Made by a program: the position numbers and the translations under genes. The notes below the pieces were generated by a model. That model was given only the letters and a program-made list of their open reading frames with translations. It had not been told where the DNA came from and did no database searches. From positions 1-64,000 of the IMG/VR virus record IMGVR_UViG_3300029305_001878: DNA of 64,000 bases, one strand, 5' to 3'. The DNA is from a virus. Lineage: Duplodnaviria > Heunggongvirae > Uroviricota > Caudoviricetes. Below are positions 47,808 through 55,780 of the stretch, one piece after another (position 1 is the stretch's first letter; every line of letters begins with the position of its first letter).

Positions 47808-48782
47808 TAGTGGAATGGCCCTAAAACCTTTTTTCCGTGTGTCGCGGAGGTCATTTTTATTAAAATGGCTAACGGGGAATTCTAAATATAATAGAGATAT
47901 TATACATGAAAATCCCGTGGGAAGATTTTCGTTATATCTCCTAAATGAAAAAATAAAGGAGATTAATTATAATGGAAAAATATATTTATAAAATAGAAAA
48001 TTTAATAAATCATAAAATTTATATTGGACAAACTAATAATTATAAAAGACGTTTTATAGAACATAAAAATAGAGGGTATAAAAAAGATACCAAAGTTTTA
48101 TATTATGCTTTTGATAAATATGGAATTGAAAATTTTGATTTTTCTATTATTGAATTTGTTAAAAATTACAATGAACGTGAGAAATATTGGATAAAATATT
48201 ATGATAGTTTTGAAAATGGTTATAATATGACAGAAGGCGGAGAAGAACCTCCTGTTTTCCATGGAGAAAATCATCATTTAGCAACTCATACTCAAATAGA
48301 TAATGATTATATTGTTTATTTATTAAAAGAAACCAATATTTCTATAAAAGATATTGCTAAATTAACTAATTATAATACTTCTTCTATTAATAGAATTAAT
48401 AAAGGAGAAATGTGGCATCAAGATAATTTAGAATATCCTATAAGAAAAAAAGGAACATTATTAGAAAAGCAAGAAAGAATTAAAAAGATACAATATGATT
48501 TATTAAATACTACTTTAACCCAAAAAGAAATTGGAGAAAAATATGGAGTTGGAAGAACTACTATTACCGCAATTAATAGAGGTCAAAATGGCTATAATCC
48601 AACTTTAAATTATCCATTACGAAAATAACCTGTATCGACTATCCCAAGTGAGATTGGGAGTAGGGCTACTATTGACACGTAGTTCGAAATGGGGTTCTGC
48701 GCGCACTCGTTCATCTAGTTAGTTGAATGATGCAAGCGCAGTAAAAGATAGTCAGGCCTTATGGAAACATAAAGGATTACCG
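47808..48782 (+). ncRNA. Group I intron 2 (in recJ-like gene) with GIY-YIG HEG
   Basis: Candidate P1: exon AGGGU with intron GCCCU at +12. Shared 5' (ggctaacgggga...aatcccgtggga) and 3' cores. Terminal G gives an in-frame junction TEG|HANAFGAG (DHHA1 motif). Confidence 0.65.
47972..48628 (+). CDS. GIY-YIG homing endonuclease (intron-encoded)
   Basis: KIYIGQTNNYKRRFIEHK; no TAG in this copy; C-terminal HTH repeats. Confidence 0.8.
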   Translation: MEKYIYKIENLINHKIYIGQTNNYKRRFIEHKNRGYKKDTKVLYYAFDKYGIENFDFSIIEFVKNYNEREKYWIKYYDSFENGYNMTEGGEEPPVFHGENHHLATHTQIDNDYIVYLLKETNISIKDIAKLTNYNTSSINRINKGEMWHQDNLEYPIRKKGTLLEKQERIKKIQYDLLNTTLTQKEIGEKYGVGRTTITAINRGQNGYNPTLNYPLRK

Positions 48783-49259
48783 CACGCCAATGCATTCGGC
48801 GCAGGAATTAAAAAAGATAAAGTTGATGATTTTATCAAATATTCAAACTCTTATTTAGCAAATTTGGACTTCTCCCCTTGTTATAATGTAGATTTGTTAT
48901 TTACAGGGAATGATTTAAATAATAAAGATATTCTTGATTTAGCAAATCTAAAATCTATATGGGGCCAAGGAGTAGAGGAACCTTTGATTGCGATAGAACA
49001 TTTAAATATTCACGGCGGAAATGTTCAATTAATGTCGCGAGATAAGAACCCTACTTTGAAGATAACCTTACCAAATGGTATGAGTTTAATCAAATTCAGG
49101 TCGTCCGAAGAAGAATATAAAAAATTATATTCTGAAACGGGTTGTGTAAGTATTAACATTATTGGAAAACCAGAACAGAACGTTTGGAATGGTATTATCA
49201 GTCCGCAAATTATTATTGAGGATTACGAAATTATAAGTCAAACAAAATACTATTTCTAA
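48783..49259 (+). CDS. recJ: RecJ-like DHH phosphoesterase, exon 2 (DHHA1)
   Basis: HANAFGAG completes the GGGH..A.G-like DHHA1 motif; frame is continuous with exon 1. Confidence 0.55.
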   Translation, partial: HANAFGAGIKKDKVDDFIKYSNSYLANLDFSPCYNVDLLFTGNDLNNKDILDLANLKSIWGQGVEEPLIAIEHLNIHGGNVQLMSRDKNPTLKITLPNGMSLIKFRSSEEEYKKLYSETGCVSINIIGKPEQNVWNGIISPQIIIEDYEIISQTKYYF

Positions 49260-49310
49260 TAATTACACAATGAGACCTAATAGTAATATTAGGAGGAAAA
49301 TATAATTATT

Positions 49311-52110: not shown

Positions 52111-52144
52111 ATTTATATAAAATAATTATTGAGGAAGTAATTGA

Positions 52145-54641
52145 ATGTATTTTAATTGTCATAATCATACAATGTATTCGAATCTTCGATTACTTGACTG
52201 TATTAATCAACCAAAAGATTTAATTGATAAAGCAATTGAATTAGGTCTTTCTGGAATTGCTATTACTGACCACGAATGTTTGTCAGCGCATATGGAAGTA
52301 AATCAATATGCTAAAAAACTTTTAGTAACTAATCCTGATTTTACTATTGCATTAGGTAATGAAATTTATTTAACTGATGATAGAGAATCAGGACAAAAGT
52401 ATTATCACTTTATTTTAATCGCAAAAGACGCTTTAGGGCATAAAGCATTAAGAGAATTAAGTTCTATTGCTTGGTATAATTCTTATGTTGATAGACGTAT
52501 GGAAAGAGTTCCAACAACAAAAGAAGAACTTGCCGAAGTTGTTCTTAAATATAAAGGACATTTAATTGCGACAACTGCTTGTATTGGCGGTGAATTAGGC
52601 ACCAATATTCTTTATATGCTTGATTGTGATAGAGTTGGTGATACTATTAATAGAATGACTTATCATAATAATATTATTGAATTTATTCAATATTGTAAAA
52701 ATCTATTTGATGATGATTTCTATATTGAATGCGCTCCTTCAAGCACGGCAGACCAAATCGCAGTTAATAAAATGCTATTAAAAATTGCCTCTGTTTTTGA
52801 TGTTAAATTAGTTCCTGGAACTGACTCTCATTATTTAACTGCAAAAGAAAGACCAATTCATAAAGCATATCTTAATTCAAAAAATGGTGAAAGAGAAGTT
52901 GATGATTTTTATGAATTTTCTCATTTGATGGATTCTAATGAATTATATAATTTATTAAAATTATCATATGAACAGTCTGTTATTAATGAAATCATATCTA
53001 ATTCATTAGAACTTCAAAAGAAAATTACTTTTTACTCTCTTGAACGCAAACAAATTATTCCAAAAGTAGAAGTTTTAGATTATCAAAAAACCTTATCTCA
53101 TTTTGGTATTAATAATAATTTGCGAGATGAATTAGATAATAGTTGGCCTACTATTAAAAGTCTTTTATTATCCGATGATATCCAAGAACGGTATTGGATT
53201 AATGAATGTTTAAATGGATTAATTGATAAGGATTTGTGGAAATATGAGTATATTTCAAGAATAGAAACAGAAGCAGACATTATAAAATATATTGGTTCTG
53301 GTCTAAATGATTGCCTTTTTGCTTATTTTAATACCTTTAAACATTATATTGATTTATTTTGGGAGTGCGGTAGTATTGTAGGACCAGGGCGAGGAAGTGC
53401 TACCGGTTTTTTATCAAATTATTTACTTGGTATTACGCAACTTGACCCCATCCGTTGGAATCTCCCTTGGTGGCGTTTTCTGAATCGGGAGAGATTAGAA
53501 CTACCGGATATCGATATAGACCTTGCACCATCCAAGCGCCCTTCTATATTCAACGCCATTCGCGAAGAGCGTGGTGAGTTTGGTCTCATTCAAGTAGCCA
53601 CCTTCGGAACAGAAGGAACAAAATCAGCAGTCTTAACTGCTTGCCGTGGTTATAGAAGTGAAGATTATCCAGATGGTATCGACGTAGACCAAGCGCAATA
53701 TATGTCCTCTTTAATTCCGCAAGAACGTGGTTTCTTATGGGATATTAAAGATGTTGTATATGGTAATCCAGAGAAAGACCGCAAACCTGTTACGACTTTT
53801 ATTAGAGAAGTAAATAGATTTCCAGGTTTATTAGATATTATTATGTCTATTGCAGGTCTTGTAAATAAGCGCTCTTCTCACGCTTCTGGTGTTATTTTAT
53901 ATGGCGAAGACCCATATGATACAGCGGCTTTTATGAGAACTCCTAGTGGTGATTTAATTACTTGCTATGACCTACATAAAGCAGAAGCCGCAGGAGATAC
54001 TAAATATGATTTCCTAGTAACAGAAGTTTCAGATAAAATTATTAAATGTATTGAATTACTTATTGAAGATGGAGTTATTAAACAAGACAGTTTAAGAAAT
54101 ACTTATAATAGTATTCTTCATCCAGAAGTATTAGATACAACTGATAAAAAGATTTGGGAACATCTTGCCGCAGGTGATGTTCTTGATGTATTCCAGTTTA
54201 GTGGTGGTGTCGGTTTAGCAATTGCTAAAAAACTAAAACCGCAAGACCCTCTAGAAATGACTGCGGCGAATGCTATGATGAGACTGATGAGTGAAAAAGG
54301 CGTTGAATCACAGCAAGATAGATATGCTAGAATTCAACGAGAAGGTATTCATATTTTTGATTGGGAAATGAAACAAAAAGGTTTACCAGAAAATATGATT
54401 GCTAAATTACATAAACATTGTGATAAGTATTTTGGTTGTTGTCCTATCCAAGAGCAGATGATGGAAATACTTATGGATGTTGCTGGATTTACTCTTGGAG
54501 AAGCAAACTCTGCTCGAAAGATTGTTGCTAAAAAGCAAATGGATAAAATTCCACAATTAAAAGAACAGGTATTTAGTAGATTTGATAATCATAATATTGC
54601 TGATTATTTTTGGAAATTAGCAGTAGCACCGCAATTAGGGT
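52145..54641 (+). CDS. dnaE: DNA polymerase III alpha (DnaE), exon 1
   Basis: PHP domain (NCHNHTMYS...ITDHE), palm and fingers. Ends ...APQLG + t; the apparent TAA 54641-54643 is created by the intron. Confidence 0.8.
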
Positions 54642-55780
54642 AAATGGCTTGCCCTTACACACCTAACCTGTTATCGCAGGGGTAAATTAATAACCCTTTT
54701 TGGGGCTAAACTTATTAATTTGCTAACGGGGAAAGTTAAGTATTAATGAAAGAATCATTAATATATACCAATCCCGTGATAAATGTCTTAATGGTCCTTT
54801 AATACATCTTAAAGGAGAAATGAAATGGTATTTTATATTTATAAATATACTAATTTAATTAATAATAAAAAATATGTTGGTTAGACTAATAATTTTCAAA
54901 GAAGAGTCAACGAACATAAAAGTTGTTCTTTTAATCCCAATAGTGTAAATTATGATGATAAAATTCATCAAGCAATTCGTAAATATGGATATAGCAACTT
55001 TAAAATTGAAATTCTTGAAATTATAACAGAGGCTAAAACATATGATTTAGTGAATGAACGTGAAAGTTATTGGATTAAAGAAGAGCAAAGTTTATTGACT
55101 CAATGGGGATATAATGTTTTAGAAGGTGGAAATAATAGTTGGAGGTCTTTTTTAACACAAGAAGATGTTGAAAAGATAAAAATGATGATTAAAGATGAAA
55201 TACCTTATTCAAAAATACAAGAATATTATCCCATATCTAAAACTTTTATTTCAGGCATCAATTCTGGAAAATATTTTTATAATGAAAAAGAAATATATCC
55301 TTTATGCAGATATCGAATTTCTAATGATATCTATGATGCTTTAATTGAAGATTTAATAAAACCTGAACTGACTTTTAAAGAACTAGCACAACGATATAAT
55401 TTAGGAGAATCAACTATTAAAAAATTTAATTATGGCACATTACAAAAAGGATATTATAAAGGTGAATATCCTATTAGAAAAATAACTCCACAAAAATATA
55501 AAAGACAATTGATAAAAGAATATTTATTAAACACTAATCTCCTATATAAAGATATTGTAAAATTAACTGGAACGTCTGATGAAACAGTGCGCAGAGTTAA
55601 TATAGGTGCAATTGATAAAGATGAAAATTTAAAATATCCATTAAGATAAATATTGTAGAGACTATTCTGGGTGAGACCGGAAGTAGGATTACTATTGATA
55701 CGTAGTTCGAAATGGTGTGCTATAATTTGTATATTATAGTAAAAGATAGTCCAGTCCTCATAGAAATATGAGAATAACTG
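54642..55780 (+). ncRNA. Group I intron 3 (in dnaE) with GIY-YIG HEG
   Basis: Exon UUAGGGU pairs with intron GCCCUUA (P1, U.G at the splice site). Cores shared with introns 1 and 2. The terminal G at 55780 gives in-frame ...QLG-Y-AFSLNHS..., restoring the DnaE GYAFNKSH motif. Confidence 0.75.
54825..55649 (+). CDS. GIY-YIG homing endonuclease (intron-encoded); 1 TAG
   Basis: VFYIYKYTNLINNKKYVG-TAG-TNNFQRRVNEHKS; C-terminal HTH repeats paralogous to HEG2. Confidence 0.8.

Follow-up and report, generated by a model that had tools for sequence, protein, structure and literature searches.

Putative T4 td-type group I introns with GIY-YIG homing-endonuclease genes in the RecJ-like and DnaE genes of a Caudoviricetes phage

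Interrupted replication genes

We analyzed a 64,000-nt stretch of a Caudoviricetes phage (positions 1 to 64,000 of the IMG/VR record IMGVR_UViG_3300029305_001878), termed the window below, in which the plus strand carries all genes. Three replication genes, encoding a DnaB-like helicase (from 41145), a RecJ-like nuclease (from 46548) and DnaE (from 52145), are each interrupted by about 1 kb, designated here I1, I2 and I3. The three interruptions have a common layout: ~160–180 nt of GC-richer non-coding DNA, an AT-rich open reading frame (ORF; 22–24% GC), designated HEG1, HEG2 and HEG3, respectively, and ~130–170 nt of non-coding DNA. The fold, covariation and splice junctions described below make it very probable that both I2 and I3 are group I introns of the T4 td/nrdD (subgroup IA2) type that splice themselves and encode homing endonucleases, with splicing and mobility predicted from the sequence. 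An earlier, sequence-only reading of this DNA had proposed group I introns with GIY-YIG homing-endonuclease genes at these places, and the covariation and the td-like cores uphold this proposal.

The RecJ-like gene (46548..49259) consists of exon 1 (46548–47807, with four in-frame TAG codons) and exon 2 (48783–49259), separated by I2 (47808..48782, 975 nt, terminal G at 48782). The paired region P1 of I2 (47803..47822) is formed by the exon sequence AGGGU (47803–47807) and the guide GCCCU (47818–47822), and its splice-site pair is a U.G wobble. AACCUU (47825–47830), the 5' strand of P3, pairs with GGGGUU (48691–48696), and is followed by hairpin A (47835–47847), for which compensatory changes were detected at all 5 pairs across the family, and hairpin B (47850–47869). 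The joining segment J3/4 (UAA), P4 (CGGGG/UCCCG), P5 and the start of P6 (47870..47924) form a region that is 83% identical to that of T4 td. HEG2 (47972..48628), the GIY-YIG homing-endonuclease gene encoding 218 aa in the P6 loop, has a ribosome-binding site, AAGGAG, at 47956–47961 and no in-frame TAG. The 3' core (48637..48782), 73% identical to the td 3' core, includes, according to the profile and the location of the elements, P7 GACUA (48637–41), P7.1 (48642–59), GUAGG, P7.2 (48665–83), UCGAAAU, P3' (48691–96), P8 (48697–741), P7' UAGUC (48749–53) and P9 with a GAAA loop (48757–75).

The dnaE gene (52145..57144; exon 1, 52145–54641; exon 2, 55781–57144; spliced product, 1286 aa) is interrupted by I3 (54642..55780, 1139 nt, terminal G at 55780), and the exon-1 ORF ends in a stop codon that extends into the first two bases of I3. 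The 5' domain (54637..54777) includes P1, formed by AGGGU (54637–41) and GCCCU (54651–55), the P3 5' strand CACACC (54658–63) and, from element location and the fold, hairpin A (54667–80), hairpin B (54682–723), UAA-P4 (54724–31) and P4' (54772–77). HEG3 (54825..55649), the GIY-YIG homing-endonuclease gene for 274 aa in the P6 loop, contains one in-frame TAG (54882). The 3' core (55660..55780) consists of P7 (55660–64), P7.1 (55665–82), P7.2 (55688–706), UCGAAAU, P3' GGUGUG (55714–19), P8 (55720–39), P7' (55747–51) and P9 (55756–72). The sequence-only reading had noted GCCCU inside both introns, which we confirmed at 10–11 nt from the 5' end and not at 12–13 nt as it had counted.

Splice junctions

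Position 47807 joined to 48783 gives ...FEYTEGHANAFGAGIKK..., with the I2 junction GAG GGT|CAC (GAG GGT|, Glu-Gly) in phase 0, and the spliced product reads ...YTEGHANAFGAG...; the junction aligned without a gap to 9 uninterrupted RecJ-like homologues. Position 54641 joined to 55781 gives ...LAVAPQLGYAFSLNHSLPYSF..., with the I3 junction GGG T|AT (TTA GGG T|, Leu-Gly-Tyr) in phase 1, and the spliced product, reading ...APQLGYAFSLNHS..., aligned gap-free to 6 uninterrupted DnaE homologues; the fetched loci served as the local database for both alignments. The insertion site of I3 is that of the DnaE intron of Enterococcus phage EF5. According to Pfam, the spliced RecJ-like protein has the complete domain set DHH, DHHA1 and RecJ_OB, and the spliced DnaE protein has PHP, DNA_pol3_alpha, finger and HHH_6. 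The earlier suggestion that the junctions restore conserved motifs is borne out for both genes. Protein alignment does not fix the I2 cut to the base, since both cuts moved one base to the left yield the identical protein; the exact cut positions of I2 and I3 follow the group I convention that a U precedes the 5' cut and a G the 3' cut.

The heptamer ATGCATT follows both insertion sites, at 48790–48796 (+8..+14 after I2, encoding N-A-F) and 55781–55787 (+1..+7 after I3, encoding Y-A-F), and is probably shared by chance.

Group I fold and family covariation

Three copies of the 5' motif GCTAACGGGGAA-N(8-38)-AATCCCGTG were found in the window and 0 in 100 shuffles, and the 3' core profile matches exactly three places in the window. 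These results support the common 5' elements proposed previously, except for the quoted strings themselves: I3 reads tGCTAACGGGGA and AATCCCGTGata in these elements, so the exact strings are not carried there. The final G was said to lie exactly 29 nt past GATAGTC, which holds in all three introns.

The 5' motif scan of viral contigs detected at least 119 contigs, and 58 distinct family members with both halves were assembled from the fetched loci, 15 of them ORF-less. Covariation was assessed on 41 aligned constructs lacking the P6 insert, with a structure derived by hand. The structure has 86.9% of its cells paired versus 73.3% in shuffles (0 of 500 reached the observed value), with both-side changes at 31 pairs and a covariation score of 0.401 versus 0.149; in slid controls, with the partners moved by 1–3 columns, 39–47% were paired. 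The compensatory changes were detected mostly in P7.1, P7.2, P9, hairpin A and P5, and P4 and P7 are invariant. The IA2-type hairpins P7.1 and P7.2, between P7 and P3', were 99.4% and 98.5% paired, respectively, with compensatory changes at all pairs. The group I features found in both I2 and I3 are P1 with U.G at the splice site, the terminal G, the P3/P7 pseudoknot, P4-P6 and P8, with the conserved sequence elements P, Q, R and S. With their ORFs deleted, I2 and I3 each gave a better fold than any of 200 shuffled sequences (z = -3.9 and -4.2, respectively), and the minimum-energy fold of I3 recovers P1, P3, both hairpins, P4-P5, P7.1, P7.2, P8 and P9.

We propose that the RNA would fold after transcription, with the last five exon bases AGGGU pairing with the guide GCCCU to form P1 and its U.G wobble at the cut, around a core of P3-P8, P4-P6, P7 and the IA-specific hairpins P7.1 and P7.2. 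Free guanosine bound by the core would attack the 5' splice site. Its place would then be taken by the last base of the intron, G (48782 or 55780), and joining of the exons would make the RecJ-like and DnaE reading frames whole again. Homing would occur in mixed infections: the I-TevI-like endonuclease would cleave the allele of a related phage that lacks the intron, and the break would be repaired with a copy of the intron.

Several observations weigh against the assignment of I2 and I3 to self-splicing group I introns. The Rfam model RF00028 (Intron_gpI) gave no match in the window at the gathering threshold and none at E <= 10 on 15 kb; the P3 5' strand is displaced from J3/4 by two hairpins, a departure from the textbook layout; P9 of I3 contains an ATG, at 55768, that opens a frame continuous with DnaE exon 2 (ORF 55768..57144); and HEG3 can be made only if its TAG is read as an amino acid.

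The Rfam search of the I2 3' half alone also gave no group I match. As a control, Rfam misses the T4 td locus with its ORF as well, even at E <= 1 on 2.5 kb. The Rfam silence is not evidence against the introns, because the proven td intron with its ORF is missed too, and the refuting outcome named by the sequence-only reading, the lack of a covariance-model hit, is unusable as stated: the search was run and there was no Rfam hit. The Rfam model cannot bridge an ORF of ~700 nt or more. The ORF-less relatives also score under the Rfam gathering score; one ORF-less member (L093, 8633–8875) has a full-length Intron_gpI match of 35.7 bits (E = 1.1e-7), the gathering score being 50, so that the model responds positively where it is applicable. 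Rfam will not flag these introns, and the family alignment is a seed for a covariance model that would recover a large phage intron group now missed.

Canonical-type group I introns were also observed in related contigs (L101, 1998–2225; L003, 3776–4020; L151, ~2900–3000), one of them with an Rfam score of 87.8 bits.

The in-frame ATG at 55768 bears on another explanation, in which the genes are truly split and free-standing endonuclease genes lie between halves that are translated separately or joined as protein, with no RNA splicing. The EF5 dnaE gene is publicly annotated as separate coding sequences, fractured genes with endonucleases between the halves are known (PMC2677866), and the C-terminal part of DnaE could in principle be translated separately, from unspliced RNA, via the ATG at 55768. 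We nevertheless consider split genes extremely unlikely: the non-coding flanks of the endonuclease genes covary helix by helix as a group I fold, the junctions are base-exact, in frame and inside conserved motifs, and genes of other phages are interrupted by copies of the element that lack the ORF, with no endonuclease present. Protein joining is also opposed by Pfam, which finds an intein domain in neither the spliced RecJ-like nor the spliced DnaE protein, but does find one in the helicase.

Inteins and group II introns were rejected as readings of these insertions on this Pfam result, on the lack of an Rfam group II match and on the position of the inserted ORFs, which lie out of frame behind a stop codon.

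The intactness of the fold also bears on the possibility that I2 and I3 are decayed group I introns that have lost self-splicing or depend on a protein of the host or the phage. Protein cofactors are required by many group I introns in vivo, and I3 deviates from the family consensus near P6 (GUGAUAAA versus GUGGGAA; no AACC before J6/7). Against this, no core helix is disrupted in I2 or I3, the endonuclease genes are complete and retain the catalytic residues, and DnaE and the RecJ-like nuclease are encoded by replication genes with intact frames; we regard decay as highly improbable and retain self-splicing introns as the preferred reading.

Displaced P3 strand

The P3' strand lies between UCGAAAU and P8, as in td, and in this family its partner follows directly after the guide sequence. 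The order after the P3 5' strand is a U-run, hairpin A, a conserved GG, hairpin B and UAA-P4. Hairpin A has 4–6 bp and a conserved (U/A)AUC(A/G) loop, and hairpin B is closed by G-C and U.G. This layout of the region from P3 to J3/4 is conserved at 47835–47869 (I2), 54667–54723 (I3) and 43326–43375 (I1) and also at 1493–1521 of L124; it was detected as well in cultured phages, both in Enterococcus phages and, without an ORF, in the nrdD intron of E. coli Vequintavirus. The hairpin A loop and the GG probably make a tertiary contact.

In an anchored, register-aware test, the P3 5' strands formed on average 6.88 bp with their own partners versus 4.96 bp with foreign partners (p = 8e-12), and 32 distinct helices were detected among the 41 introns. 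For the canonical position that P3 takes in td and sunY, immediately 5' of UAA-P4, complementarity to P3' was not beyond chance (3.90 versus 4.12, p = 0.82). On the MAFFT alignment P3 is only 62.8% paired, the U-run before hairpin A shifting the register by one or two columns; the support for P3 was taken from the register-aware test and not from the MAFFT count, and an unconstrained RNAduplex partner search was noisy. In the sub-threshold Rfam alignment of L093, the model forces a wrong P3.

It is conceivable, although we would rather doubt it, that the family is an undescribed T4-like group I subclass without P2 and with two hairpins nested between the P3 5' strand and J3/4. A short literature search found no description of a "P3.1/P3.2" layout in group I introns, which is a weak sign of novelty. 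If such a subclass exists, its layout keeps the family under the Rfam threshold, though it is common in phages of Firmicutes and enterobacteria.

Comparison with known introns

The td intron sequence used for comparison was from the T4-like phage L123. Its core is 67–83% identical to the I2 and I3 cores. Like them, the IA2 intron td has the exon end GGGU, UAA(A)-CGGGG...UCCCGUG, GACUAUCCC...GGGGAGUAGGG, UCGAAA, AGAUAUAGUC and a P9 hairpin, with P7 GACUA/UAGUC, and with P7.1, AGUAGG, P7.2 and UCGAAA before P3' and P8; td also carries a GIY-YIG gene with its own ribosome-binding site in the P6 loop. Unlike I2 and I3, td contains a P2 hairpin, placed between P1 and P3, and J3/4 immediately follows its P3 5' strand, UCUAUC. 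I2 and I3 end 7–8 nt past P9, whereas td continues beyond P9 with the P9.1 and P9.2 stems.

The T4 nrdD intron (sunY) resembles the family in having no P2, a P3 5' strand only a few bases after P1, and a core of the P4/P7.1/P7.2/UCGAAAC type. In contrast to the family, the sunY P3 strand UCUGCC runs straight into J3/4 with no hairpins between, and the sunY ORF is located 3' of the P7/P7.1/P7.2 core and not in P6 (annotated ORF 1514–2290 of L153). The Staphylococcus phage Twort has several related IA2 introns in different essential genes, with the canonical P2/P3 layout.

The same family includes the introns of the Enterococcus phages EF1, EF5 and VRE9_3 and the E. coli Vequintavirus nrdD introns, with core stretches 83–89% identical. 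The EF5 intron interrupts the identical DnaE codon (QMG|YSF) and carries a GIY-YIG endonuclease 42% identical to HEG3, and a neighbouring endonuclease there is annotated as 'Phage intron'; the Vequintavirus nrdD intron, unlike I2 and I3, has no ORF. These host phages differ from the phage analyzed here in using the standard genetic code, and the Enterococcus phage DnaE is only ~40% identical to the DnaE here. I1–I3 are new members of a known intron type, related most closely to the T4 td/I-TevI and nrdD introns and to a phage intron family that is widespread and unstudied.

The helicase intron

The boundaries of I1 (43289..44332), which contains HEG1 (43487–44164, with four in-frame TAG codons), had to be corrected, since the sequence-only reading had put the 5' end after AGGGT at 43303. 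That junction leaves a 5-residue gap in 13 of 13 uninterrupted helicase homologues (KYIFNPKRVHDY versus KYIF-----HDY). With exon 1 ending at 43288 (...ATATATT|), the alignment is gap-free with the 13 uninterrupted homologues and fits KYIF|HDYIHTS; the L074 helicase, which reads VKYIFHDYIHTS, is 77.6% identical. These alignments place the true 5' splice site of I1 after 43288, 15 nt upstream of the earlier placement. The claim that AGGGU precedes all three introns is valid for I2 (47803–47807) and I3 (54637–54641), and fails for I1.

The predicted P1 of I1 pairs the exon UAUU (43285–88) with the guide GAUA (43309–12), and GCCCU is absent from I1. The helicase-site orthologues in L041 and L031 have exon UGUU and guide GACA, a compensatory change relative to I1. 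The AGGGU at 43299–43303 is inside I1, as the 3' strand of a P1-loop hairpin (CAACCC-gaaaa-GGGUgUUG) that covaries in the orthologues, for instance L089 CGACUCU...AGAGUGUCG.

An extra conserved hairpin (GCAUUUUAGGAAACGAAGUGC plus UUAAAUGCC) was observed at 44224–44262, in the interval between P7.2 and P3', in I1 and some family members; neither I2 nor I3 has it. In the helicase ORF (41145..43288), positions 41832–42944 encode an intein of ~371 aa with a LAGLIDADG endonuclease domain, which interrupts the Walker A motif (GVGK|AIPN...VTHN|T) and has Ala, not Cys or Ser, as its first residue. One helicase gene carries both an intein and a group I intron, and a homologous intein was detected in L034. 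The load of selfish elements in the replication genes of this phage comes to three introns with endonucleases and one intein within 15 kb, a further instance of how heavily such elements burden phage replication genes.

Guide pairing and the origin of the three introns

In the clear cases, to which the P1 counts were restricted (the automated finder misplaced P1 in I1, I2 and some others), P1 is formed across the family mostly by exon NGGU and guide GCCN. Position -4 covaries: GGGU/GCCC is the commonest, and AGGU/GCCU, UGGU/GCCA and CGGU/GCCG also occur. The RecJ-site orthologue L007 has AAA GGT| with the guide GGCCU, so the guide follows the local codons. That I2 and I3 have AGGGU in common is to be expected, the guide being conserved and both introns being inserted at conserved glycine codons, in different phases. 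The predicted pairing shows that the guide limits the sites where these introns persist, and such a constraint would be consistent with introns now and then reaching new sites, where selection for splicing would then act (review PMC3984707). The pattern is uninformative on endonuclease recognition.

The sequence-only reading had taken the shared AGGGU to indicate a recently expanding family whose endonucleases may target AGGGU-containing sites. Such an expansion within this genome, by endonuclease targeting or by GCCCU-guided reverse splicing, would account for exon AGGGU and guide GCCCU being common to I2 and I3. It would also agree with the family-wide GGU|/GCC pairing constraining where the introns live, and with reverse splicing, for which 4–6 complementary bases suffice (review PMC3984707). 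The evidence from relatedness makes it very unlikely. The I1–I3 cores are 57–63% identical to one another versus 63–78% to copies in other phages, and I1 is 75–78% identical to the helicase-site introns of L031, L089 and L041. HEG1–HEG3 aligned together share few identical columns, and the nearest relative of each occupies the corresponding site in another phage: for HEG1 in L031 (80% identity), for HEG2 in L049 (47%) and L095 (40%), both at the RecJ site, and for HEG3 in EF5 (42%) and in L141 and L118 (36–39%; L141, 36%), all at the DnaE site. The endonucleases group by insertion site, which marks these elements as old site-specific lineages moving between phages.

Endonuclease targeting of AGGGU is not supported either. 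The family-wide P1 rule accounts for the pentamer; no exon end is more frequent in the family than GGGU, in which the T4 td exon ends too; the guide at the RecJ site of L007 tracks AAAGGU; and I1 follows UAUAUU. GIY-YIG homing enzymes, e.g., I-TevI, recognize long sites and not 5 bp.

Among the IMG/VR relatives, the DnaE site is uninterrupted in 24 of 28 and carries an intron of the same family in L141–143; in L151 an intron of another type lies at roughly this position. The Gly-Tyr site of DnaE appears to be an insertion hotspot. Interrupted and uninterrupted genes are mixed among the helicase and RecJ relatives, with further insertion sites included.

Endonucleases

Each of the three introns contains a GIY-YIG ORF, as the sequence-only reading had stated: Pfam detected PF01541, the N-terminal GIY-(9–11 residues)-YIG domain, in HEG1–HEG3 with E = 6e-10 to 2e-8 (HEG2, 2e-8). 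All three also match PHROG homing-endonuclease families (E = 1e-29 to 5e-36; HEG2, 6e-30), and an AAGGAG-like ribosome-binding site precedes each ORF. HEG2 matches the I-TevI catalytic domain (1LN0/1MK0) with E = 4e-8 and with the catalytic Arg, Glu and Asn aligned; the same R, E and N are also kept in HEG1 and HEG3 in the alignment. The C-terminal regions appear unlike that of I-TevI: the I-TevI DNA-binding domain had no match there, and Pfam gave weak helix-turn-helix-type matches only (HTH_3, 24–25 bits, in HEG1 and HEG2).

The TAG of HEG3 (54882) corresponds to Q of YVGQT, at which HEG2 has CAA. HEG1 and HEG3 may be made only when TAG is read as glutamine, which may tie homing to the recoding state of the phage. 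Recoded stop codons in a phage-intron endonuclease gene have been described for a TGA-recoded clade (Borges et al., bioRxiv 10.1101/2021.08.26.457843).

TAG codons and genomic surroundings

TAG must be a sense codon for many frames in the window to stay open. With TAG read through, the whole window has 103 long open frames versus 79 otherwise, and in-frame TAG codons number 12 in 36046–37044, 5 in 23020–24324, 4 in 46548–47807 and 5 in 57246–57854. At two TAG positions Q is the commonest residue in homologues, and in HEG1 and HEG3 TAG stands at the Q of the YIGQT motif. The related contigs L041, L031 and L093 likewise use TAG as a sense codon. TAG is a sense codon here and probably encodes Gln. 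No tRNA gene, including a TAG suppressor, was found within the window. The helicase, the RecJ-like nuclease and DnaE are complete only once spliced and with TAG read as sense, and fragments are expected from standard gene callers at these three genes.

The cultured phages nearest by DnaE are Enterococcus phages (VRE9, EF1/EF5, H1) and SPbeta-like Bacillus phages, with ~40% identity, and the nearer relatives (<=71% identity) are uncultured contigs of 160–195 kb. A phage megablast of the 15 kb region resulted only in 100-nt matches, all to intron cores.

Downstream of dnaE, at 57868–57920, we observed a long near-perfect hairpin located 5' of, and overlapping, an ORF start at 57913. It surfaced solely as a spurious microRNA-family match (E = 0.58) and could be a terminator or a regulatory stem.

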